This document shows, in pieces, positions 2,967-46,683 of a stretch of DNA of 46,856 bases. The stretch lies in the NCBI GenBank assembly GCA_041554035.1, contig JBFFMO010000001.1, positions 1 to 46,856 of the forward strand, read 5' to 3'. The notes beneath the pieces were generated by a model that worked only from the letters and a program-made list of their open reading frames with translations, had not been told where the DNA came from and did no database searches. Position 1 is the stretch's first letter. Each line of letters begins with the position of its first letter. Both the position numbers and the translations under genes were made by a program. The DNA comes from Microvenator sp. (lineage in GTDB: Bacteria; Myxococcota_A; Bradymonadia; Bradymonadales; Bradymonadaceae).

Positions 2967-3437
2967 ATGACCAGCACAGCAACCAACAAAAAAATCAAAT
3001 CACTCAAGCCGCTTTTAAATACATATCTGGCCACCAGTAAAGAAGCGAAAAAATGGGGCGCAATTATTCGGGCGTTTACTGTCGCGGAATTAAATCGTGT
3101 CGAGTATATGCTCTCGGAAGAATGGGCGGACGACGAAAGGCTTGCAAAACGCATAACTGACCCGAAACTCACATATCTCATGAGTGAAACCGATATAGAG
3201 TTATTCTCTGCGGAACAGCGCGCATACGTTGAAACATTGGGGCTCGAATGGTTGCCGGAAGGGAATTGCCCTGCTTTGTACACTGAAAACGAACAAAGAA
3301 AAGCGGCCCGCGCTATGCTTATCGCGACTGGCAAGGCCTTGGGACTCGACCTTTCGCCCGAAAGCGTTATGATTCTCGGGCCGGAAAAATATCAAGAAAC
3401 CATCGCTTCGGTCGTTGGGTTGATTCAAAACGCATAA
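2967..3437 (+). CDS. Hypothetical protein, accessory cassette gene 1 (156 aa)
   Basis: AAGGAG RBS 10 nt upstream of the ATG. No motif recognised. Confidence 0.7.
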   Translation: MTSTATNKKIKSLKPLLNTYLATSKEAKKWGAIIRAFTVAELNRVEYMLSEEWADDERLAKRITDPKLTYLMSETDIELFSAEQRAYVETLGLEWLPEGNCPALYTENEQRKAARAMLIATGKALGLDLSPESVMILGPEKYQETIASVVGLIQNA

Positions 3438-3454
3438 ATGGGGCAAGACCACCG

Positions 3455-3472
3455 GGGCGGCTTCGGTCGCCC
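3455..3472 (+). terminator. UUCG-tetraloop hairpin between cassette genes 1 and 2 (attenuator or stabiliser; weak U-tract)
   Basis: GGGCGGC-TTCG-GTCGCCC (7-bp stem with one G-T pair), followed by TCTAATATCT. Confidence 0.3.
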
Positions 3473-3501
3473 TCTAATATCTCACAAAAAGGAGAGTAAA
3501 A

Positions 3502-3834
3502 ATGATCAACTACAGAGGCAACGAAAACGGTAGAATCAGAATCGAAGCAGACAGCGTGCAAGAGTTTGTCGAACGCTATCAGCCGGACGGATGCACCACC
3601 TGCAACTACGACGAAGAAACCGGCTTCATCGCATTCGAAAACGAGCACGTCAAAATCTACCCCGTGCGCGTTGGTGCAAGCGGACTCGGACCCGGAACAA
3701 TAAGATGGCAATGGTTCGACGAACGCAGACCCGATTGCTCCGAATCTGCCGACCCAAAAGCCAGACGCGCACGCAAAGGCTTCACGCAAGCGACCGCGCA
3801 AAAAGCATGGGATTTCGCACGGGGGAATAAATAA
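3502..3834 (+). CDS. Hypothetical protein, accessory cassette gene 2 (110 aa)
   Basis: Strong RBS AAAGGAGAG upstream. Basic C-terminal tail. No family recognised. Confidence 0.7.
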   Translation: MINYRGNENGRIRIEADSVQEFVERYQPDGCTTCNYDEETGFIAFENEHVKIYPVRVGASGLGPGTIRWQWFDERRPDCSESADPKARRARKGFTQATAQKAWDFARGNK

Positions 3835-3835
3835 A

Positions 3836-4030
3836 ATGGCTAAAGCAGGACGACCAAAAGCAGAGACCAAAAAGACCTTCAAGACAATCGGGGTGACCAG
3901 CGAACTGCTCGACAAGTTCGACCGCATAAGTGTCCAGGTACAGGCCAAGCGGGGGCAGATATACAAACGCCCGGAACTACTGGAACTCGCGCTGGATGCT
4001 TTGGCGGAGAGGGAGGGGGTTGAGTTATGA
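3836..4030 (+). CDS. Putative ribbon-helix-helix (CopG/Arc/omega-like) DNA-binding protein (64 aa)
   Basis: Basic N-tail (AGRPKAETKK), predicted beta-strand KTIGVT, then two helices (SELLDKFDRIS, RPELLELALDALAERE). Starts 1 nt after the gene-2 stop and overlaps gene 4 by ATGA. Confidence 0.55.
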   Translation: MAKAGRPKAETKKTFKTIGVTSELLDKFDRISVQVQAKRGQIYKRPELLELALDALAEREGVEL

Positions 4031-4440
4031 AGACACCAGGGAGCAGCACCATAGAAGGGCTTCGCTCACCCATCTCTGTCATGGAGTTTGTGGGCAGGAA
4101 TATCTATAAAAATGGGTCGTGGCGCATGACCGACATTGAAGAGGTTCTTGATGTCATTGAGAAAATGGTACACGACTTCTTTCATAAAGCAGGGCCACCC
4201 ATTAAACGAGACCGGCTGTGCATAATCACGTCGCCCAGCATGTGGGAGTTGATTAAAGTCAAAGCCGTAGATAGTAATGGAAGGCCAATTTGTCTACAAC
4301 ATGATGAATCATTCAGGGGGATTGCCGTAATTTGTGACAAACGATTCATAGTCCCCGGCGGCGGGCGATTGTCGTTGGTGCTTTGCGAAAAAAAAGGTCA
4401 CGACTTCTTGTTAGAGAATTCCGCCGGGGTTCTTTACTGA
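4027..4440 (+). CDS. Hypothetical protein, accessory cassette gene 4 (137 aa); possible HK97-fold capsid-like fragment
   Basis: ATGA-coupled to the RHH gene. IITSPSMWELIKVKAVDSNGRP...FRGIAVICDKRFIVPGG recalls the nP-x-x-W...kD-x-x-Gr...l-G-x-PV pattern of HK97-family capsid C-termini (from memory, not searched). Confidence 0.6.
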   Translation: MKTPGSSTIEGLRSPISVMEFVGRNIYKNGSWRMTDIEEVLDVIEKMVHDFFHKAGPPIKRDRLCIITSPSMWELIKVKAVDSNGRPICLQHDESFRGIAVICDKRFIVPGGGRLSLVLCEKKGHDFLLENSAGVLY

Positions 4441-26172: not shown

Positions 26173-27078
26173 GGTGTTGCTCCTTCCGCGCGTTTCGCGC
26201 ATTTGGGAATTCCCGCCCCAGGGCGAGTTTGAATCCGTTTCTTTCGCAGCCAGTTCACGAGCCATATCAATCGCGTCAGCCAGTTCGCCGATGCGGTCAA
26301 TCATTCCGATTTCAAGAGCCTTCTTGGCCCCGTATATCCGCGCCTCACCGCTCATCTTGGAAACGGCTTGCGCGGTCGTGTCTCGGTTGCGTGCAATCTT
26401 GTCGATAAGAAGCGCGTCGGCTTCGTTGATCAGTTCTTCAAAGTAGGCAAGGGCCGCCCCCTCAAGCGGGCCAGCGTCGTTACCGGCTGCCTTCAGGGTG
26501 CGCGAAGTGACAAACTTGTATTCCACACCGGCGCGTTCGTTCGCTTTGCTCCGGTTCGTGTGGCGCATAATCACGCCGATGGAACCGACGCGGGCGGTCT
26601 CGTTCGCGACGATCTGATCCGCTGCGCTGCCAACCAGATAGGCGGCACTGGCCAGCGTGCCATTCCCGAATGCGACAACCGGTTTTTCCTGCCGCGCCTG
26701 AAATACCAAGTCCGCCAGCGTGACCGCGCCGTCAACCATTCCACCGGGCGAGTCGATGTCGAGAACGATGGCGGAAACGTTGGGGTCTTTTACTGCCTCC
26801 TGAATCGCCTTGCCGGTTAGTTCGGTGGACACGCCACCGGAAATCTGCATGAACATGTTGGCGCGTTTTGCCATCGTGCCAACCATCGGGATAACGCGCA
26901 CCGCTCCGGCGTCCCACGGTTCGGGCGGCGAGAACTTGAAGTCGCCAGCGGCTGCGGAAACGTCGAGCCCTTCCATGCGCGGGTCGAGAATGTCAGAGAT
27001 GATTCCCATGTATTCAGGCGTAATTGCCCAAGGATTAGAGAACGCAACATCGCCGATGCGGGGGTACTTATTTGTCAT
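25708..27078 (-). CDS. Head maturation protease (S49/SppA, lambda gpC-like) fused to a scaffold domain (456 aa)
   Basis: NGTLASAAYLVGSAADQIVANETARVGSIGVI is the S49 serine-protease signature. Overlaps the portal gene by 11 nt. Confidence 0.85.
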   Translation of the reverse strand: MTNKYPRIGDVAFSNPWAITPEYMGIISDILDPRMEGLDVSAAAGDFKFSPPEPWDAGAVRVIPMVGTMAKRANMFMQISGGVSTELTGKAIQEAVKDPNVSAIVLDIDSPGGMVDGAVTLADLVFQARQEKPVVAFGNGTLASAAYLVGSAADQIVANETARVGSIGVIMRHTNRSKANERAGVEYKFVTSRTLKAAGNDAGPLEGAALAYFEELINEADALLIDKIARNRDTTAQAVSKMSGEARIYGAKKALEIGMIDRIGELADAIDMARELAAKETDSNSPWGGNSQMRETRGRSNTMQTYEDALALMHEGKADQVTPENQAKIAANAGKTPEEATAKKEEGGLMAQLLAAITGTKEKAEDTTPEPEALDTAAVLEACDKAGLSATQYAAIVGVEGVTTKAALNAVVAHMAETNKALANVDKAKETAVSVEDAEKTAAAGLAAAAKDLGIE

Positions 27079-28546
27079 CTTTCGCGTCCTTTTCTGATTC
27101 GATAATCACTGTGGTGGGAGACTGCGCGGGGGTGAGTTTCAACTCCGCCATGTAGTCTTCTTCTTCTTTGCGCTCGTCCATCAGGTCGAAGAAGTTCTGC
27201 CCCTTTTCACGCGCAATCTGCTGGCGCGAAGTGGAGCCATTTTCCAAAGCCAACTTGTAGGAGGTTTCCTGTTTGGTCGGGTCAAGCTCTCGGGGGATCG
27301 GGTGGGAAATCTGGACGGCGTAGGGGTCAACAACGCCCGCAGGAACGGGACGCTTGCGCAGGATGAAATAAACGTGATCGACGAATTTGCGCCAGATCGG
27401 TTCAATCAACTCTTCATCCATCTCGCGGGAGAGGTCGGCGAAAAACAGACGATCCTCGTTGTCCGCCTGACGACCGCCCGAGTAGGACACGCCGGTCAGG
27501 TTCCGAGTCAGCAAGAGATACGAAATGCCCAGACCAGCGGCGATTGCGTGGTGAATCACGCTCGTGAACTCCGCAAGGTTCTGCGGCGGGGAGGTGGCGG
27601 CGACCATTTTCACGTCGGTGTTTTTGTCGAGGTTGTAGATTGTCCCGTAGGAAAGCGGCGTGCCGTGCAGGGTCTGGTTGCTCATTGTGCCGTCAACATT
27701 TTTATCTGACACTTCAGAACCGACCCCTGGGCTCCAGTCATGTTTTGTGAGTTCGGGATCGCGGCTGCTGATGAAGGCGGTCATGCAAGCCTGCACCCAG
27801 GCTTTCGTTATTGTCGCGTTGCGGAATTCGTCGTCGTCGGCCAGCAGCAAAACAGCGGGGGTCAGGAACGGGATGCCGCGCGGGTTCCCGTATCGGGAAC
27901 TGTTCGACCAGTGAAAGACACGCGAGGCAGGGACGCGGGTCAGTTTGCGATTAACCGCACCCGCGAACATATCTTTCCCGTCATCGTAAAAGTGATAGGC
28001 AACGATTCGCCCTGCGGGGTTTGTCTCAATCCCCATGTTGACTTTGTTACCCTCGGGCACGCCTTCGGCGAGTTGGGCGTCCTCGGGCAACTGGTCGCCT
28101 TCGACGATCTGAAAGCGCAAACTGAAAGGCAGGTCTTTGTGGTTGGAATCAACAACGAAAACTTCACCGTCGCGGAAATACGTCCGCGCCAGCATCTTAA
28201 AAAACCGGTGGCCCTTATCGCCCTTGACCGAGATGTCCCAGCAAAATTCTTTGAAGAGCGCACGCAACGCCAGGTTCTCGTCGCGAAGCCGCCCCTTTTC
28301 CGCGTTGGTCAACTGCGGCTGGAAATCCAAGCCCGCGCCAACCGTGCGGCGCACCATCGCTTCAATTGCACCATGAGCAATCAGGTTGTTGTTGTACAGG
28401 TCACGGCACCGGGCTCGAACAACGCCCAACACGCCGCAACGCAGTTCTTTCTCGGCGGCCTCGCTCCAGGAGCGCAGATTGCTCGTGAACCGGTTAAAAC
28501 CACCGGCGCGAAAAATAGGCTGTCCGTATTGATCAAGAATGGTCAT
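27068..28546 (-). CDS. Portal protein, lambda family (492 aa)
   Basis: Size and position between the gpW-like and S49 protease genes. Confidence 0.8.
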   Translation of the reverse strand: MTILDQYGQPIFRAGGFNRFTSNLRSWSEAAEKELRCGVLGVVRARCRDLYNNNLIAHGAIEAMVRRTVGAGLDFQPQLTNAEKGRLRDENLALRALFKEFCWDISVKGDKGHRFFKMLARTYFRDGEVFVVDSNHKDLPFSLRFQIVEGDQLPEDAQLAEGVPEGNKVNMGIETNPAGRIVAYHFYDDGKDMFAGAVNRKLTRVPASRVFHWSNSSRYGNPRGIPFLTPAVLLLADDDEFRNATITKAWVQACMTAFISSRDPELTKHDWSPGVGSEVSDKNVDGTMSNQTLHGTPLSYGTIYNLDKNTDVKMVAATSPPQNLAEFTSVIHHAIAAGLGISYLLLTRNLTGVSYSGGRQADNEDRLFFADLSREMDEELIEPIWRKFVDHVYFILRKRPVPAGVVDPYAVQISHPIPRELDPTKQETSYKLALENGSTSRQQIAREKGQNFFDLMDERKEEEDYMAELKLTPAQSPTTVIIESEKDAKDDK

Positions 28547-28770
28547 TAGCGGGGCGACCTTATGGCGAGAATGCGAGCCGCGCCGGACGCTGCTTCAAGT
28601 CGGCGTATCGTGGATCGCTTCTCGTCAACCATCTTCTGGAGTTCTGAAAAGGGGATGCGGCGGGCGAAGTTACCATCGGAGCGATACTCTTCGATTCCCT
28701 CTGCATAGGAGTCGAGCATCTCTTCGAGACGGGCTAAATCGGCTTTGAGTTGGTCAAGGTAGACGGACAC
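28546..28770 (-). CDS. Head-to-tail joining protein gpW-like (74 aa)
   Basis: Lambda-W-like pattern (L..L...L..G....SDGNFARR..FSELQKMVDEKRSTIRRLE) and position before the portal gene. Confidence 0.65.
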   Translation of the reverse strand: MSVYLDQLKADLARLEEMLDSYAEGIEEYRSDGNFARRIPFSELQKMVDEKRSTIRRLEAASGAARILAIRSPR

Positions 28771-28827
28771 GGCGCGCCCCTTTCTGGTTCAATCAGACCA
28801 GACGGAGCAGCATGGCGCAAGAAGGTC

Positions 28828-28845
28828 ATTTACAGATCTGTAAAT
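28828..28845. repeat. Perfect 18-bp palindrome ATTTACAGATCTGTAAAT
   Basis: Read directly. Lies in the 155-bp non-coding gap between the Zn-ribbon ORF and the gpW-like gene. Confidence 0.85.
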
Positions 28846-28859
28846 ACCGTTTTAATATT

Positions 28860-28909
28860 TAGTGTTCCGTAATGTTCCGTAGTGTTCGGTAGTGTTCGGT
28901 AGCGTTTGC
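28860..28909. repeat. Array B: five contiguous 10-bp repeats, consensus TAGTGTTC
   Basis: TAGTGTTCCG / TAATGTTCCG / TAGTGTTCGG / TAGTGTTCGG / TAGCGTTTGC. Same motif, phasing and orientation as array A (2779-2818). Confidence 0.85.
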
Positions 28910-28925
28910 GAGGCTTTTTTGTGGG

Positions 28926-29141
28926 TCAGGAAAAACGACCGCTGGCAATCCGGGTCGCGTTATTTATGCCACAAGAGGGGAGGTCGTCAGTCGTCTTTGC
29001 TGTTGCACCGCAAGCGGGGCATTTCCAATAGCGGGTGCGGATGCGCGTCCCGTCGCCGTTCACTTCAACCGGAGCAGAGACGACACGCATCCGCTGGCCA
29101 CAGCAATAGGCTACTTCTTCCGGCATAATGATTGGCGGCAT
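28926..29141 (-). CDS. Small zinc-ribbon protein (71 aa)
   Basis: CCGQ...CPACG Cys pairs. Start overlaps the terminase stop (TAATG). Confidence 0.5.
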   Translation of the reverse strand: MPPIIMPEEVAYCCGQRMRVVSAPVEVNGDGTRIRTRYWKCPACGATAKTTDDLPSCGINNATRIASGRFS

Positions 29142-31015
29142 TATCTCCCCCTCCGTGCGGCGTAGGCGGCTGCCGGGTTGTCTTGCATGCCCGACCCGCG
29201 CAGTGCAGCCTCTTTGGCTTGGCGTTTCGCCTCGCTGGCTTGCGTGTCTCTCTCAAGTGGCTGCAACTTCCAAAGCCCCTTGAACTCAGCCATTGCGAGC
29301 GCACCAACTGCGCAGTCGAACCAATGGTTGTCCGCGCCCTGATATTTCGGTTCCCAGACTTCTTTCCCTTTTTTGACAATTTTATGCTCTGCCGCCCACT
29401 GCTTCAGCAACGCTTGATCGGCACTCTTGCACAACTCGATTCTATTCCTGTCCTGATTCTCTTCTCGCTCGCGCTCAACGGGATCAAGCAAGCGTGCGAA
29501 AATGTCCTTGTAGTGCATCGTGTCGACGTGCAAACCCTTGAAACCACGAGCCAGTTTGTGTCGGGCCGCGTCAATCGTGAACGGCTTGACGGCCAGGGTC
29601 ATGCTTTGCTGGCCCTTGGTCGGGATGCAGTACGGCTGGCGCGAATGGCAGAACTGATAAACCTCGCTCACACGCTCACCCCAACCAGAGTCAACGCCAA
29701 TCGTCGGAGCGAACCGTCGCCCCCCTTGCTCAAAAATCCGGACAAGTTGTTGATCAATATCCGCGATTGAAAACTCTTGTCCGTAGTCAATAAGCCAGCC
29801 GCGATACCCATACCCCCACGCCCACAGGTTCCAGTAGAGCCCCTTGCGCTCGCCATGCCAGTCGATAAAGCCGGTCAGTATTTGCGTTTCTTCCGGCAGC
29901 GTCCCGCGCTCCAGAGTTGCCTCGGTCAGCAGCGGCGACAACTTCGCTGTTTCCAGCCCGGATACCTTCTCCTGGAACGGCTCCGCCAGCCACGAGTTGG
30001 TGAAGTTCTGGAGTTTCTCCCGATTGCCCTGCGATGCCAAAAACTCGTGAACCACCAGAGAGAATGAAACCCACGGAGAATAGATGGCGCTCATGTGAAA
30101 GCCCACATGGGACGCGTCGCCCGCCTCCTGTTCCCCCTCACGAAACCACTCGCCCTTTGCCAGCATGGCGGGCTTGTCGCGGTCTGTGATCCGTTCGCCG
30201 CAGTGAGAGCACTCGTACCAAGCCAGATTGCCGGACAACACCCGCTCTGGATCGCGCTCTCCCTCGGGGAACTTGATCTGCGACCATTCGAGCGTCTGGA
30301 AAATCCCGCAGTGCGGGCAAGGGACGTGATACTTGTGCTGGACGGACCGGTCCCACTCCTGCATGATCAAGTCATCCGGGACGGTTGGAGTCGAGGTGCA
30401 AATGATTTTCGAGCGCCCCGGAAACGTCATGGTCCGCTGCCGGGCCAGCGAAACAGGGTCCGCCTCCTTGCGCACCGACATGGGGAACTTACCGACCTCG
30501 TCCAGAAAGACGTAGCAGATCGGCATACTGGCCAGCGAAGACGGCGACCCGGCCCACGCGAACAGGAGCAGACTGTTGTCGAGTTTGTAGCGGAGTTTTT
30601 GCTTGTCGCGGGGCCGCTCGGTCAGGTGCGCCTTGAGCGCCTCGCACGAGTCAAACATGGTCAAGATGCGGTCCTCCGAAAACTTCCGCGCCACGTCCCG
30701 ATCCGGCAGGACGTAAAGCATCGGCCCCGGTTTGTTGCATACCGTCCACGCCAGCAGGTTCTTGGCGATTTGCGTCTTGCCTACCTGCGTCGCACACAGG
30801 AGCGTTATCTTTCGGACATGTGGGGACGCGTAAGCCTCCATGATGGCGCGGGCATAGGGCGTGCGCGAAACCCTATACGGCCCCGGCTCGGATGAATCGA
30901 TGCTGGACAGCACGACATTCTCTTCGCACCACTCGGTAATGGTCAGGTTCGCCGGTGGACGTATCGACCGCCCGACGTGCGAGAACTGTTCCGCGAACCG
31001 TGCGCTATTCAACAT
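29141..31015 (-). CDS. Terminase large subunit, lambda gpA family (624 aa)
   Basis: Walker A CATQVGKTQ, Walker B YVFLDEVGKF, zinc-ribbon CPHCG...CSHCG. Size and position. Confidence 0.9.
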   Translation of the reverse strand: MLNSARFAEQFSHVGRSIRPPANLTITEWCEENVVLSSIDSSEPGPYRVSRTPYARAIMEAYASPHVRKITLLCATQVGKTQIAKNLLAWTVCNKPGPMLYVLPDRDVARKFSEDRILTMFDSCEALKAHLTERPRDKQKLRYKLDNSLLLFAWAGSPSSLASMPICYVFLDEVGKFPMSVRKEADPVSLARQRTMTFPGRSKIICTSTPTVPDDLIMQEWDRSVQHKYHVPCPHCGIFQTLEWSQIKFPEGERDPERVLSGNLAWYECSHCGERITDRDKPAMLAKGEWFREGEQEAGDASHVGFHMSAIYSPWVSFSLVVHEFLASQGNREKLQNFTNSWLAEPFQEKVSGLETAKLSPLLTEATLERGTLPEETQILTGFIDWHGERKGLYWNLWAWGYGYRGWLIDYGQEFSIADIDQQLVRIFEQGGRRFAPTIGVDSGWGERVSEVYQFCHSRQPYCIPTKGQQSMTLAVKPFTIDAARHKLARGFKGLHVDTMHYKDIFARLLDPVEREREENQDRNRIELCKSADQALLKQWAAEHKIVKKGKEVWEPKYQGADNHWFDCAVGALAMAEFKGLWKLQPLERDTQASEAKRQAKEAALRGSGMQDNPAAAYAARRGR

Positions 31016-31616
31016 CCTGGCAGAGTTCCCCCAAGCGAGACCGGATTTCGTCGTTGATCGCCTGCTCTATCGTGCTGATTTCCTGGCCGTAAAGCATGGG
31101 AGCCAGTTTCGCTCCCAAGCCGGAAATGGTGTCTTTGAAGAAAACCCCGAGTTCGATCTCGCGGCTTTCCACGTCAGCCAACGGGACCAACTTGCCGAGA
31201 CGCTGCGCCAGTTTGGCCTCTTGCATTTGTGCGTCGGCCCGTTCCTTGCGCTGTTTCCAATTAACGCCGTTTTCATCCCGTGCGCCCTCTTCGTTTGGAG
31301 CCGATCCGATCAACTCTTCCGCCTGCCGGGTCAACTTCCAGTCGAGGTGCCACGCCATCACGTCGCGCAGGCTGTACGTCTTGTCGCGGTTTCGCGGGCA
31401 GCCGTTCCGCTTCACCCAGTCCGTGACTGTCTGCTTATTGACCCCGAATATCTCGGCGACGTCGATCCCGCGCAACGACTGGTCAGCCGCAGCGAACCAC
31501 CCAGCCTCGTGGAATTCTTTGATCATCCACGGGTGCGCGTGGGCCTGTTCTGCCACGGCAAGCACCTTGGCCTTTTGCTCTTTCGTTACGACTTGCTTGG
31601 CCTTCCGTTTCGCCAT
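31005..31616 (-). CDS. Terminase small subunit, Nu1-like HTH (203 aa)
   Basis: IDVAEIFGVNKQTVTDWVKRNGCP is a Nu1-type winged HTH. Overlaps the terminase large subunit gene by 11 nt. Confidence 0.7.
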   Translation of the reverse strand: MAKRKAKQVVTKEQKAKVLAVAEQAHAHPWMIKEFHEAGWFAAADQSLRGIDVAEIFGVNKQTVTDWVKRNGCPRNRDKTYSLRDVMAWHLDWKLTRQAEELIGSAPNEEGARDENGVNWKQRKERADAQMQEAKLAQRLGKLVPLADVESREIELGVFFKDTISGLGAKLAPMLYGQEISTIEQAINDEIRSRLGELCQDVE

Positions 31617-31877
31617 TTAGGCCCCCTCAGTCCGGTAATCAGCAACCCCAAAAAAATCTAAAACTCGTAAAAAGAGCGAACTCGGGGAACTAACCCCGAC
31701 CCCCTCCCCCCGGGGGAGGACCCGCGGCCTCTCTCGCGCCGTCTCGCGCCCCGTGAGGGCTGTTCTCGGTCGCGCCAAGGGTGCGGGGCGGCTAAATGAC
31801 GCGAGGCTGTGACGGGCTTTATTTAAAGCGATAGGGGCAAGTGTTTCCGAAGAACTTTGTGTGTGATTTGATTTTGG

Positions 31878-31932
31878 ATAAAACAAAAGCGGACACTCCT
31901 CGTTGGCTTGAGCAACGAGCGGGAGTGTCCGC
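31878..31932 (-). terminator. Strong rho-independent terminator at the end of the early/replication operon
   Basis: Minus strand: perfect 11-bp stem GCGGACACTCC / GGAGTGTCCGC with an inner 5-bp stem, followed by TTTTGTTTTAT. Lies 53 nt after the rusA stop. Confidence 0.8.
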
Positions 31933-31984
31933 CAAGACAGGGAGAGAATAGCAGCGGAGAACTGAGGCGTCAAGTATAATCTCA

Positions 31985-32431
31985 TTACTTGCTCTCTTCC
32001 GTTGGGTAGCCAGAGCGGGGGAGTTCTCGGAGCATTACCCAGACACCCGGCGTGTCTGCCCAAAACTTCTGGCTTGTTCCGTCGGCGATGTGCGAGTCGT
32101 TGTCCACGAAGCCGAGCCTCTCCAACTCGTCGCACAATGCTTTTGGGATGTTGTCCCAGTCTGGCGTGGTCGTCTTCCAGTCTCCGTTGCGATGCTTGCT
32201 CTTCGGGGAGATCGGCCACAGGAACTTGAGTACGCACTGAAGCGGGGCCTTGAGCGGCTTCTCCGGGATGTGGGCGGCCAGGTGACAGCGGAACTTGATG
32301 CGGGCAGCCTTGAGCGGGTCGCTGTCCCTGATTGTCGTGATCCTGCCACGCTTGCTTGCTTGCTTGGCTTGGGCTGTGACGGTCGGCGGTATCATGGGCA
32401 TGAAGAACTTGAGTTTCCTGTGCTGTGTCAT
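31985..32431 (-). CDS. rusA: RusA-family Holliday junction resolvase
   Basis: KTTTPDWDNIPKALCDELERLGFVDNDSHI is the RusA catalytic Asp motif region. 148 aa. Confidence 0.8.
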   Translation of the reverse strand: MTQHRKLKFFMPMIPPTVTAQAKQASKRGRITTIRDSDPLKAARIKFRCHLAAHIPEKPLKAPLQCVLKFLWPISPKSKHRNGDWKTTTPDWDNIPKALCDELERLGFVDNDSHIADGTSQKFWADTPGVWVMLRELPRSGYPTEESK

Positions 32432-32649
32432 CGCGTGGCGTCCTGTCGTATGACATCAAGTATTTCCATACGGTGGTGGCGATCCGCTGCCGCCGCAAAC
32501 TTATCCATCCGAGCGCCGGAAACAAACGCAAGGTTTTCCGCATCGAACGTCAAGTAAAGCCGCTTGCCTTCAATTGACACGACATAAACAATTCTGCCAA
32601 TATCCATTTCTGATTTTGTGGCTATTCTTCGATAGATTGCCCACTTCAT
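32428..32649 (-). CDS. Hypothetical protein (73 aa)
   Basis: ATGA-coupled to rusA. Confidence 0.55.
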   Translation of the reverse strand: MKWAIYRRIATKSEMDIGRIVYVVSIEGKRLYLTFDAENLAFVSGARMDKFAAAADRHHRMEILDVIRQDATR

Positions 32650-32898: not shown

Positions 32899-34221
32899 TC
32901 ATTCTGTCTCATTTTTGCTATCCTTCCGTAATACAAGCCCCTTGGAAACGACCATTTCGGGGTGCTTGATCAAGTATCTCCTGACCGTCTTCTCTGCTAC
33001 CCCCATCGTCTCCGCAAGGTCTTCCGTGGTCACTGCTGGCCCTTCCGAGAGGCATGCTTTGTACGCCTCGCTCAGTGCCTCGTTCTGTTCCTTTTGGCGT
33101 TCCTTGACGCTCTTCTTCGGCTTAGCATTCTTCTGCCACGGAGCCTCTTCGCCCTCCGCCTTGGCATCCTTCAGAAGCGAATATCGGTCATCGGAGTGGA
33201 TGGGGTAGCGGAAGAATATCGACTTCGGCGGCATGGTTGGGAACTCGCGCAGAGTGGTCTCCACGCGCCAGCCTGACGCCAGTGTCGCCGCTTCCCGGAT
33301 GATGGGCCGATATTGCCTGACAGCGTCCGCAAGGCCATTCATCTCCGCCCAGGCTATAAGGTCGCGAGAAACGACCGTGTTGTCCTGTGGGCAGGTGTCG
33401 CGCCAATTTGGGCTAACGTGGTCGAAGGCATTGCTCAGTCCGTGGCATTCCCACGAGTTGACAATCTGGTATCGGCGGGCATCGTCGATGTTGAGTTCGA
33501 TCAGGTCCACGATGGCGTCGGGGTCGCGGGAGAACACGCCAGAGCCAGAGGAGCGGTCTCGACTGCTCTTTTGCCCCTGCGTACCTTTCGAATGGTGGTG
33601 GCAGTAGATGGTCGCTGCCCCGAGTTCCTTGCAAATCCGGTCGAATTGATTGCAGAACTTCGCCATCTGCTCCGCGCTGTTCTCGTCACCGGTCAGGACT
33701 TTGTATATGGGGTCAATGACCACGGCGGCATAACGCTTTTGCAGGGCTCTGCGGATGAGTTTAGGCGCGAGCCTGTCCATGCTGGTCGCATTGCCCCGGA
33801 GATTCCACACGTCCAACATGCCGGGGGTTCGCTTTATTCGCAGGGCCTCGTATATCTTCCAGAATCGGTGCCGACAGGATCGCTCGTCGAGTTCGAGGTT
33901 GACATACAGGACGCGGCCCTGCTTGACCGGCCACCCGAGCCACGTCCCGCCTTCCGCAAGGGCTACGCACAACTGCATAAGGGCAAATGATTTCCCGGCC
34001 TTGCTTGGCCCGGATAGTAGCATCTTGTGCCCTTCGCGGAGTAGGCCGTCAATCAGGCACGGCGCCAGTTCTGGCTCTTTTTCGTCGATGCTCAACTCTT
34101 CGATGTCCGGGAGATCGTCGTTCAGGTCTTCAACCCAATCATGCCATTCTTTCCAGGATGACTTGCCAACGTTGGTGCCGATCAGGTATTGCCGGTTGCC
34201 CCCCCGTACGATGCCAGGCAT
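32899..34221 (-). CDS. RepA/DnaB-like replicative ATPase (AAA_25-like) with C-terminal HTH (440 aa)
   Basis: Walker A LLSGPSKAGKSF, Walker B AAVVIDPIYK, RecA-like core. C-terminal TTEDLAETMGVAEKTVRRYL HTH. Confidence 0.7.
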   Translation of the reverse strand: MPGIVRGGNRQYLIGTNVGKSSWKEWHDWVEDLNDDLPDIEELSIDEKEPELAPCLIDGLLREGHKMLLSGPSKAGKSFALMQLCVALAEGGTWLGWPVKQGRVLYVNLELDERSCRHRFWKIYEALRIKRTPGMLDVWNLRGNATSMDRLAPKLIRRALQKRYAAVVIDPIYKVLTGDENSAEQMAKFCNQFDRICKELGAATIYCHHHSKGTQGQKSSRDRSSGSGVFSRDPDAIVDLIELNIDDARRYQIVNSWECHGLSNAFDHVSPNWRDTCPQDNTVVSRDLIAWAEMNGLADAVRQYRPIIREAATLASGWRVETTLREFPTMPPKSIFFRYPIHSDDRYSLLKDAKAEGEEAPWQKNAKPKKSVKERQKEQNEALSEAYKACLSEGPAVTTEDLAETMGVAEKTVRRYLIKHPEMVVSKGLVLRKDSKNETE

Positions 34222-34272: not shown

Positions 34273-35121
34273 TCAGGTGCAAACGTCCCACAGAAAATCA
34301 ACGCGCTTTCGGTACTCCTCGATTGTATCCGCGTCAATTTTGACGATTGCGTGGATTGATTTTCCACCGGAGTGCACGATTGCAGCGCACGGCAGTTCCA
34401 GTTCGCGGATAATGGCGTACTGCTTCGGCATTGGAATTTCGTCACTTTCGACCAAGGCATATCGGTGAGAAGTGACGTTATCGTCGCGGACTCCGGTGCC
34501 GTTCATGGGATTGAATCTGATCCATGCACCAGCCTTGGGATCGGCATCGCCAATCACGCGCCCCACATTTCCGCCACATTTGCCAAGTTGCTCGATAAGT
34601 TGCCCGGCTGTCCGGTCATAGGCACCCATTCCCTTTGGAAGGTATTTGCCTTTTGCTTCATTTAGCCAGGATTCAACGTTGTACGAAACTTTTTCATCTG
34701 ATTGAAATAGCGTTGACAGGTAAGACATGAGGTCTTTAACCGGGTTCCAACTCGGGCCAGGGTCGGGGATTTCGGAATCTTGCAACCAATCGGCGTCAAT
34801 GATGCGGAGGTCTTTGCCGGACACACACACATCCTCATTCCATCCAAGCGAACGGCCTTCTTCTCTGGGCGGCTTCCATCCTTGGGCCATTGCCATCTTT
34901 GCCAGTGATGCCACGGTGATTGGCTGCGCCGATCCGTGGAAGGATTGCCATTTCTGGTGGCAATCTCCCTCCCGGTATCTGGCCGGGTCGCGTCGGCTCC
35001 ATGCGTCCCACTGATCGGGGGATAGGCCTGCGTCCTTCAGCGCCATCCCGGCATAGAGCCACTCCTCGTACTGGAGTTGGCTTGGGTCTATGTGATTGAG
35101 CATTTCGAGTGCTTCAGACAT
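34273..35121 (-). CDS. Archaeo-eukaryotic-type primase-polymerase with N-terminal PriCT-2-like domain (282 aa)
   Basis: N-terminal W..AGMALKDAG...WDAWSRRDPARY....C..KW.SF (PriCT-2 pattern). YALVESDE (acidic motif) and HSGGKSIHA (sG-x-G-x-H AEP motif). Confidence 0.6.
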   Translation of the reverse strand: MSEALEMLNHIDPSQLQYEEWLYAGMALKDAGLSPDQWDAWSRRDPARYREGDCHQKWQSFHGSAQPITVASLAKMAMAQGWKPPREEGRSLGWNEDVCVSGKDLRIIDADWLQDSEIPDPGPSWNPVKDLMSYLSTLFQSDEKVSYNVESWLNEAKGKYLPKGMGAYDRTAGQLIEQLGKCGGNVGRVIGDADPKAGAWIRFNPMNGTGVRDDNVTSHRYALVESDEIPMPKQYAIIRELELPCAAIVHSGGKSIHAIVKIDADTIEEYRKRVDFLWDVCT

Positions 35122-45978: not shown

Positions 45979-46188
45979 CTACCCTTTCGCAGTCTTCCGC
46001 CTGATCGCCCGGCGGGTTGGTTTCGTTTTCTGGAATGCCGCTCTCACACCTTGTCGGACAAGGTCGGCCAGCGCATGCGCATTCTCAAACGCAATTCCGT
46101 CCGGGAACTTGATCACGGGGTATCCGCCGACACACGGGTCAGGCATTACGATCTCAACTCTTCCGGTGAATGGGACGTATCCAGCCAT
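45979..46188 (-). CDS. Hypothetical protein (69 aa)
   Basis: ATG 46188 overlaps the upstream TGA (TGATG). The ORF-track GTG at 46191 is an alternative start. Confidence 0.5.
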   Translation of the reverse strand: MAGYVPFTGRVEIVMPDPCVGGYPVIKFPDGIAFENAHALADLVRQGVRAAFQKTKPTRRAIRRKTAKG

Positions 46189-46379
46189 CACAAAACCCCC
46201 CTGTGCGTCTTCGCGTTAATATAGTTCTCAAGGTCGTTCAACTTGACGCGCCTTTTCCTTGCTGAGAGAATGACCACCGGGAACGCGCCCGCCCGGATCA
46301 GCGAGCGCACCACGCCCTCGGAACATCGCAGTTCCTTGGCGGTATCTCTGATGGTGAGTAGTTGGGCTCTCGGTGTCAT
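46188..46379 (-). CDS. Excisionase/AlpA-like HTH_17 DNA-binding protein (63 aa)
   Basis: LLTIRDTAKELRCSEGVVRSLIRAGAFPVV...VKLNDLENYI. GGGAGAGGGA RBS before ATG 46379. Confidence 0.55.
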   Translation of the reverse strand: MTPRAQLLTIRDTAKELRCSEGVVRSLIRAGAFPVVILSARKRRVKLNDLENYINAKTHRGVL

Positions 46380-46425: not shown

Positions 46426-46683
46426 TCACACGCCAACAATGTCGGTGTGGTCTTTGCTTTTCATGCCCAACGCTCTTGCGGCCTGTGCCATATCTCGCAA
46501 AGTCCATTTGGTTTCACCCTTCAACAATCGCGTGACGCGGCCTTTTTCCCAACCGGCGCGGCGCGCGAACTCTGTTTGCGTCCACTTGCGCTTGGCTATT
46601 TGTTGTCCAATGAAACGGTTGTAGCGCACTTCTTCGGGCAACAGTTGTTTGCTTTTCGTCACTTTTCGTTCTCCGTTAGTCAT
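46426..46683 (-). CDS. Cro-like HTH regulator, first gene of the early (lytic) operon (85 aa)
   Basis: WTQTEFARRAGWEKGRVTRLLKGE HTH. Divergent from the 134..373 gene across the operator region. Confidence 0.75.
   Translation of the reverse strand: MTNGERKVTKSKQLLPEEVRYNRFIGQQIAKRKWTQTEFARRAGWEKGRVTRLLKGETKWTLRDMAQAARALGMKSKDHTDIVGV

Follow-up and report, generated by a model that had tools for sequence, protein, structure and literature searches.

Two helically phased arrays of one motif, at the attachment site and at the terminase-head junction of a phage genome, are candidate targets of a single excisionase-like protein

Why should a phage carry one tandem array of short, helically phased repeats beside its attachment site and a second array of the same word within its head operon? 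The question is raised by a stretch of 46,856 nucleotides from a Microvenator sp. assembly, referred to here as the window. The first and last 141 bases of the window are identical, and the genome of this temperate phage is therefore circular, with a length of 46,715 bp. Array A (2779-2818, + strand) consists of four head-to-tail 10-bp units, TAGTGTTCAG, TAGTGTTCAA, TAATGTGCAT and TAGTGTGTGT. Array B (28860-28909, + strand) consists of five, TAGTGTTCCG, TAATGTTCCG, TAGTGTTCGG, TAGTGTTCGG and TAGCGTTTGC, of which the first four are strong and the fifth is degenerate. A sequence-only reading of this DNA had described the units, their core, their orientation and their 10-bp register in both places, and our analysis reproduces that description. 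It had also argued that the duplication calls for a dedicated DNA-binding factor with two targets. Here we ask how far the sequence context of the two arrays bears this out, and which protein and which function would fit.

The core 8-mer, TAGTGTTC, occurs exactly five times in the whole genome, always on the + strand (2779, 2789, 28860, 28880 and 28890), and no exact copy was found on the - strand or outside arrays A and B. Base composition predicts 0.67 copies on the + strand and 0.40 on the - strand. Since matches to TAGTGTTC with one mismatch are not rare (24 observed vs 22 expected), the signal lies in the clustering and phase of the word, and not in the word alone. We built a weight matrix from all nine array units and scanned both strands of the genome with it. 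The top eight places were taken by eight array units, the six best scoring 12.6-14.7 bits; the best match outside the arrays reached 10.5 bits, and unit 5 of array B (TAGCGTTTGC) 8.8 bits. The genome-wide motif scan that the earlier reading had suggested thus returns two arrays only, with no third one on either strand. As a tandem repeat, array B ranks second in the window (TRF score 66). Of the four best matches outside the arrays, two, TAGCGTTCGA and TATTGTTCCG, lie on the - strand at 3569 and 3693, 124 bp apart, less than 1 kb from array A and inside the ORF at 3502-3834; they may be due to chance.

Comparison of the two arrays indicates what has been kept and what has not. Identity between A and B is 0.82 in core positions 1-8 and 0.17 in spacer positions 9-10, and the G and T at positions 5 and 6 are invariant across the nine units. 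Conservation of the core without conservation of the spacers points to a binding site that is read once per helical turn, and not to a recent duplication. The resemblance extends into the flanks, where CCGTTTT stands 5-6 nt upstream of both arrays (2767-2773 and 28847-28853) and a run of six or seven Ts lies 0-5 nt downstream (2818-2824 and 28915-28920). Given these common flanks, the conserved unit may measure about 70 bp and reach beyond the repeats alone.

A literature search for the 8-mer TAGTGTTC returned only primer sequences. A pattern of three TAGTGTTC units is present in 12 GTDB genomes and 52 metagenome contigs from many phyla, and we considered whether a widespread family of TAGTGTTC-binding proteins could account for it. 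This was rejected, as no protein family is common to the neighbourhoods and a shuffled control word outnumbers TAGTGTTC in IMG/VR, with 43 matches vs 19. Because the shuffled word gives more, these outside matches represent background 10-bp minisatellites. In an unrelated element, L045, an array of TAGTGTTC and TAATGTTC (808-833; also in L060 and L089) immediately precedes a serine-recombinase-like ORF (MNAIIYTRVSTEEQ), and an HTH_17-like ORF comes next; given the result with the control word, this arrangement may be a coincidence.

That 10-bp minisatellites are common, as the control word indicates, also lends something to the idea that array B has no function, being either a minisatellite grown by slippage or a stray copy of the att arm in an insertion hot spot. 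Array B contains two identical units (3 and 4) and two with the same spacer (1 and 2), which suggests local duplication, and the interval between terL and the gpW position, where the array lies, is highly variable and holds inserted accessory genes (morons). However, the chance that two independent minisatellites would share the same 8-mer, register and orientation is about 3e-4. The spacers, moreover, are wholly different between the arrays while the core is kept, and the common CCGTTTT and T-run flanks argue for a maintained module. We consider it quite unlikely that array B is functionless.

The genes around the arrays have a recognizable order. The immunity region spans the contig junction, with a cro-like HTH gene (46426-46683, - strand), a CI-like HTH gene (20-373, + strand) and ATTGCA-type operators between the two. 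The + strand continues with a second XRE-type gene (540-869) and a tyrosine integrase (1400-2581), and beyond this CI-like/XRE/int stretch nearly all remaining genes lie on the - strand. These include early replication genes and a primase-helicase, followed by terS (31005-31616), which encodes a winged-helix protein with weak HTH_17 similarity, and by a large terminase subunit of the lambda gpA type (terL, 29141-31015). A 74-aa ORF at the gpW position (28546-28770, - strand; 35% identity to its equivalent in the relative L106) lies directly upstream of the gene for a lambda-family portal (27068-28546, - strand), after which come head, tail and lysis genes. The phage has no close relatives: the best terL and the best Int matches are each 41% identical, and the TAGTGTTC motif is absent from those relatives. 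A distant blastn search with positions 28000-30000 against the phage GenBank collection gave no match.

The replication genes have features of their own. The primase ORFs at 34273-35121 and 32899-34221 (- strand) match positions 7-283 and 303-745, respectively, of the 747 positions of phrog_2597; because they correspond to its N- and C-terminal parts, either the gene is split or there is a frameshift or sequencing error. The segment 32744-32880, immediately downstream of the primase-helicase gene (whose product has a C-terminal HTH), contains 7 of the 13 GGGACAG copies in the genome, in both orientations, followed by an AT-rich block, catatataaatatatgaa. This segment is likely to be the replication origin. 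We rejected the possibility that arrays A and B are iterons of the P4-alpha-like primase-helicase, forming a pair like P4 ori and crr, since it is the GGGACAG origin that adjoins that gene and TAGTGTTC is absent there.

Array A belongs to the attachment region. The att core is the 3' part of a tRNA-Ile gene, starting from the anticodon loop (2638-2692, + strand). Annotated tRNA-Ile genes of E. coli match positions 2638-2686 at 88-90% identity, no complete tRNA gene was found in the window, and a terminator hairpin follows the core at 2702-2734. The region is an attP with the tRNA 3' part as its core. A second word, TTAGTAC, occurs in three copies genome-wide, all on the + strand, with one on the int side of the core and two on the far side, 229 bp away from it. 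The int-side copy forms a candidate arm-type site, TTTTTAGTACAT (2591-2602, + strand), 10 bp after the int stop codon; the far-side copies form a candidate pair, TTTTTAGTACAT (2820) and TTCTTAGTAC (2831), which are 11 bp apart, extend over 2820-2840 on the + strand and abut array A. From this layout we infer that the TTAGTAC sites are putative integrase arm-type sites. Two integrase relatives, L103 and L105 (40-41% identity), have a like arm plan, again one plus two copies, built from words of their own. In L103, ATGTCCAA..CGTCCAAC lies inside the end of int and ATGTCCAAATTATGTCCAAC 231 bp further on, with a tRNA fragment between them, and in L105 copies containing (T)TTGTGCA, 193 bp apart, flank a tRNA fragment.

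Array A itself, 40 bp in length, fills the space between the tRNA-Ile core and the far-side TTAGTAC pair, and neither strand on the int side of the core contains TAGTGTTC. Because TAGTGTTC is confined to one arm and TTAGTAC fills the two-arm role, array A is probably not an integrase arm site. The presence of TTAGTAC on both arms and of TAGTGTTC on one upholds the earlier contention that array A is more than a set of such sites.

These data also bear on the integrase as a possible binder of both arrays. Its N-terminal arm-binding domain would then recognize TAGTGTTC, array A would be a long P' arm, and array B would act as an Int sink or bridging site. About 115 residues precede the SAM-like domain of the protein, TAGTGT and TAGTAC have TAGT in common, and the reverse complement of the lambda arm consensus, ATAGTGAC, contains TAGTG, all of which can be counted in favour of this arrangement. 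Nonetheless, TAGTGTTC is missing from the int-side arm and so occupies one arm instead of two, whereas TTAGTAC provides a two-arm set with spacing as in the Int relatives. The two words differ at positions 5 and 6, where the G and T of the array units are invariant, and neither a core-like sequence nor TTAGTAC is present near array B. Binding of both arrays by the integrase is, in our judgement, decidedly unlikely.

By analogy, the position of array A would be that of excisionase (RDF) sites. The X1-X1.5-X2 excisionase sites of lambda have the same layout. RdfS likewise occupies 40 bp immediately upstream of an Int arm site (PMC11963761).

A strong sigma-70-like promoter (2876-2903; 10/12 matches, extended -10), some 60 bp past array A, drives three + strand ORFs of no assigned function (2967-3437, 3502-3834 and 4027-4440), two of them with near-identical ribosome-binding regions (2946 and 3484). 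These ORFs at the prophage end (2967-4440) are probably cargo genes expressed in the lysogen.

For a protein that might occupy such sites, the genome offers one obvious candidate. A 63-aa ORF at 46188-46379 (- strand) encodes an excisionase/MerR-like winged helix (Pfam HTH_17, E = 1.2e-8), a small protein of the kind that serves as an RDF. It is the second gene of the early leftward (lytic) operon, after the cro-like gene, and the only Xis-like gene among the ORFs scanned; the relative L103 has an HTH_17 gene in the equivalent early operon. In a search of PDB sequences the second-ranked match was mycobacteriophage Gp37 (4j2n), which we take to be Pukovnik Xis, at a non-significant E of 0.83. 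A homologue search retrieved only the protein itself, and its single-sequence AlphaFold model (mean pLDDT 59) was too poor for a structure search. The arrays have the form expected of RDF sites, in that four and five direct repeats follow each other at 10 bp, about one helical turn, where at least three adjacent repeats would be looked for, and array A occupies a single att arm from the core to a putative arm-type site. Arguing from known RDFs, we infer that arrays A and B may be bound by the 46188-46379 product. A ribbon-helix-helix (RHH) protein had been named earlier as a possible binder; none is present among the ORFs scanned, and the Xis-like HTH_17 protein is the likelier choice. The suggestion of a centromere-like function also loses ground, since the phage has an integrase and an attP, and no ParA, ParM, ParB or ParR family member is present among the roughly 40 ORFs scanned.

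A non-coding gap of 155 bp (28771-28925) contains array B, with the gpW-position gene and portal on one side and, on the other, a 71-aa zinc-ribbon ORF (28926-29141, - strand) whose start overlaps the terL stop codon. It had been placed inside the head operon, which is right in substance, the gap being bounded by this terL-coupled ORF and the gpW/portal genes. The same gap contains a perfect 16-bp palindrome, TTTACAGATCTGTAAA (28829-28844), 15 bp from array B and unique in the window. Without a single base change, TTTACAGATCTGTAAA recurs in L110 (2958-2973) and L113 (5699-5714), again between a zinc-ribbon ORF and a gpW-like gene; the terL products of these two are 38% and 21% identical, respectively, to that of the window. 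At least nine further IMG/VR contigs (L027, L181/L212, L187, L192, L194, L221 and L231/L239) have its 14-bp core, TTACAGATCTGTAA, flanked by a gpA-type terL on one side and a lambda-type portal on the other, and the palindrome thus recurs at a matching place on the maps of at least 11 very distant phages. Its start is usually 3-10 nt past the stop codon of a small zinc-ribbon ORF; array B occupies what is normally a tiny gap between that stop codon and the palindrome, as though it had been inserted there. The palindrome is the most conserved thing in the array B region.

The zinc-ribbon proteins form a family of 50-90 aa with the pattern CPxC...YRxC(x2-4)C, encoded right after terL across the clade (L106 3783-3998, L110 2452-2661, L109 7897-8133 and others). 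Three of ten members match Pfam Ogr_Delta below threshold (E ~1e-3; 18-19 bits vs a cut-off of 26.3), a similarity that is to be read as a lead and not as membership. The family may comprise putative late activators.

What transcription might be affected by array B? A weak sigma-70-like match, TTTACA-18-TAATAT (28829-28858, + strand), points into the array, antisense to the late operon, and ends 2 bp before it. The genome has 27 comparable matches, of which this is one, and neither L110 nor L113 has its -10 element. A 66-aa gene of L110, located on the antisense strand beside the palindrome, fits outward transcription from that spot. We found no convincing promoter for the gpW-like gene, and on reading the sequence near array B we saw no sigma-54 or P2-type TGT-N12-ACA sites. 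The region was rejected as an RNA element or small RNA, as its folding z-score of +1.28 indicates no stable structure and no Rfam family matched.

Tandem arrays at this place are not confined to the window. Four of eight genomes have the best 9-12-bp tandem array of their whole locus in the terL-to-gpW interval, each with a motif of its own. That of the window (10 bp x 4.7, TAGTGTTCNG) lies between the zinc-ribbon ORF and the palindrome. Those of L113 (5306-5363; 10 bp x 5.8, ATTAAACAGS) and L108 (4074-4121; 11 bp x 4.5, AATGGGAATTT) come right after the terL stop codon, and that of L106 (5995-6032; 11 bp x 3.5, CGCACGGCCCC) comes immediately after an HTH_17 gene and 64 bp ahead of the gpW-like gene. 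Apart from these arrays the interval varies, and different relatives carry different inserted genes in it. No second copy of the L113 array motif was found elsewhere in its contig. Because the motifs differ among relatives and the L113 array stands without a partner, an att-independent role is conceivable, and arrays at the terL-to-gpW position may do something that needs no partner at att.

The relatives also allow us to weigh binders other than the HTH_17 protein. Both arrays could be recognized by the zinc-ribbon protein, by a host regulator of the OmpR/PhoB type, response regulators that bind direct repeats 10-11 bp apart, or by a phage factor that we failed to recognize. The zinc-ribbon ORF abuts array B, the L113 array abuts a homologue of that ORF, and most small ORFs of the window have no family assignment. 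Co-occurrence is inconsistent, however, as L108 has an array but no zinc-ribbon ORF and L110 has the ORF but no array. A late protein, furthermore, would have no obvious role at att, and we have no evidence for a host factor. We therefore hold a different binder for both arrays to be unlikely.

The recurrence of arrays in the terL-to-gpW interval has another possible meaning, namely that array B is part of a packaging signal. The repeats would be cosB-like terS sites, the palindrome would be the cutting site, and the genome ends would lie between terL and gpW. Conservation of the palindrome wherever a gpA-type terminase is present could then be explained by a conserved nuclease, and terS, with its winged helix and weak HTH_17 similarity, would be a suitable binder. 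The map is hard to reconcile with this proposal. Array B is located about 2.1 kb downstream of the terS stop codon, beyond terL, and not between cos and terS, which disfavours the cosB-like role that was among the functions first suggested for it. Of about 12 palindrome-bearing contigs, 0 end at the palindrome, while four contigs of relatives terminate 0.5-2.6 kb upstream of terL. In most relatives the palindrome stands alone, with no array next to it. A cos site with a self-complementary overhang would be out of the ordinary, and array A at att would be left without a reason. Finally, it is the 370 bp upstream of terS, with a promoter, a terminator, GGCGCGA repeats and a symmetric block, that resembles lambda cos. 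A packaging role for array B thus appears highly improbable.

The stretch upstream of terS is of interest in itself. This non-coding DNA of about 370 bp (31617-31985, - strand) has a late promoter, TTGACG-17-TATTCT, at 31973-31945, a strong terminator-like hairpin, three GGCGCGA repeats and a GC-rich symmetric block, CCTCCCCCGGGGGGAGG, and is a candidate for a lambda-style antitermination region plus cos. A 308-aa ORF that overlies it (31617-32543) is probably spurious. The ORF at 31985-32431 is RusA-like by reading of its sequence.

Taken together, the common word, orientation and 10-bp phase, the presence of only two arrays, and the excess of core over spacer identity argue for one factor acting on both arrays. 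The conserved palindrome 15 bp away, the promoter-like match and the L106 array beside an HTH_17 gene speak for a regulatory setting of array B. A dedicated DNA-binding factor with two targets is thus still the best reading, in part supported: the shared motif, orientation and phase bear it out. Among the functions originally listed for array B, control of late-gene expression fits best. We propose, at somewhat short of even confidence, that both arrays bind one cooperative winged-helix protein, probably the HTH_17 product, and that this protein is a dual-purpose RDF with its second target in the late operon. Such a binder would sit head to tail, one monomer per helical turn, in a cooperative manner. 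At array A, the HTH_17 RDF would coat the 40 bp from core to arm-type site, bend the arm and steer Int to excision. At array B, it would occupy about 50 bp between the zinc-ribbon gene and the palindrome, and its occupancy would set transcription at the terminase-head gene junction; the effect could go in either direction.

One specific version of the array B mechanism invokes the antisense promoter match. A + strand promoter would fire against the zinc-ribbon gene and the terL end, in antisense, and the array would extend over its positions +1 to about +45; the excision factor, made early after induction, would silence that promoter and so license late expression. This version is the one we favour, but with low confidence. 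A point against the dual-purpose RDF as a whole is that known proteins of this kind act at the lysis-lysogeny switch, and in that region of the present phage (46400-46856 and 1-400) the array motif is absent, with no match of at least 9 bits. The arrays of relatives at the terL-to-gpW position, which may work independently of att, weigh against it as well.

A broader and rather unlikely extension is that the terminase-head junction is a dedicated regulatory node in a broad lambda-like clade, with the array acting in this phage as a checkpoint between excision and morphogenesis. The parts of such a node would be an Ogr-like zinc-ribbon gene coupled to terL, the near-invariant 14-16-bp palindrome TTACAGATCTGTAA and, in several members, a phage-specific phased array. 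In this phage the array would use the word of the excision factor, so that one protein would both direct excision and gate the head and packaging genes.

If the dual-purpose RDF reading is true, the principle extends from the lysis-lysogeny switch to the timing of packaging and head genes, and a simple molecular link would exist between the signal for prophage exit and the building of virions. The palindrome, for its part, could be the signature of an element that controls late genes throughout a large group of uncultured lambda-like phages. What we least expected among our results is the conservation of this palindrome and the recurrence of arrays at the terminase-head junction.

How does this arrangement compare with known systems? 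Lambda cosB, with the R sites of gpNu1, resembles array B in offering repeated sites to a packaging-module protein with a winged helix. CosB is flanked by cosN and Nu1, and its R sites are not known to form a tandem or phased series; array B, unlike cosB, is downstream of terL and has a twin at att. A closer likeness is found in lambda Xis, the Xis proteins of L5 and Pukovnik, and RdfS of integrative and conjugative elements (ICEs), which bind as winged-helix monomers, head to tail, at 10-bp spacing on one arm. Their sites adjoin an Int arm-type site, as array A adjoins the putative one, and the candidate binder here is in Pfam HTH_17. To our knowledge, none of these systems has a second array of equal quality in a structural operon. 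RdfS, in addition, has no clear consensus site, whereas the motif described here is sharp.

An effect on late genes does have a parallel in mycobacteriophage D29. Gp36, a MerR-like homologue of L5 Xis, binds to direct repeats where the structural arm begins and reduces the expression of early and late genes downstream (PMC12266134). As predicted here for array B, a protein of the excisionase family acts on direct repeats and affects late genes. D29 differs in being lytic and having no functional att role, and its site consists of two GC-rich repeats 20 bp apart, start to start, and not of a 10-bp array.

The closest comparison is with the dual-purpose RDFs 186 Apl, P2 Cox and P4 Vis. According to the Apl study, RDF sites consist of direct repeats spaced by one turn of the helix, and binding requires at least three of them side by side (PMC7498355). 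Apl, the RDFs of P2-like phages and that of P4 also regulate transcription far from att through sites that are alike in sequence and arrangement; in 186, five Apl sites lie at att and seven between pR and pL (PMC7498355). As dual-purpose RDFs have distant regulatory sites, a second array is to be expected for such a protein, and the four and five phased sites of arrays A and B match this pattern. The present system is alike in having a small HTH protein encoded early in the lytic operon, direct repeats about one helical turn apart (in arrays of 5-7 in those phages), and one att array with a distant, here putative, regulatory array (PMC7498355; PMC3936717). It differs in that Apl is the first gene of its operon and the candidate here the second, and there is no demonstrated sequence relationship between Apl or Cox and the HTH_17 protein. 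Above all, the second array of 186, P2 and P4 lies between face-to-face lytic and lysogenic promoters, whereas array B lies in the late operon. The arrangement is best filed as a putative instance of a known one, that of the dual-purpose RDF, with the second array in the late operon as its new aspect.
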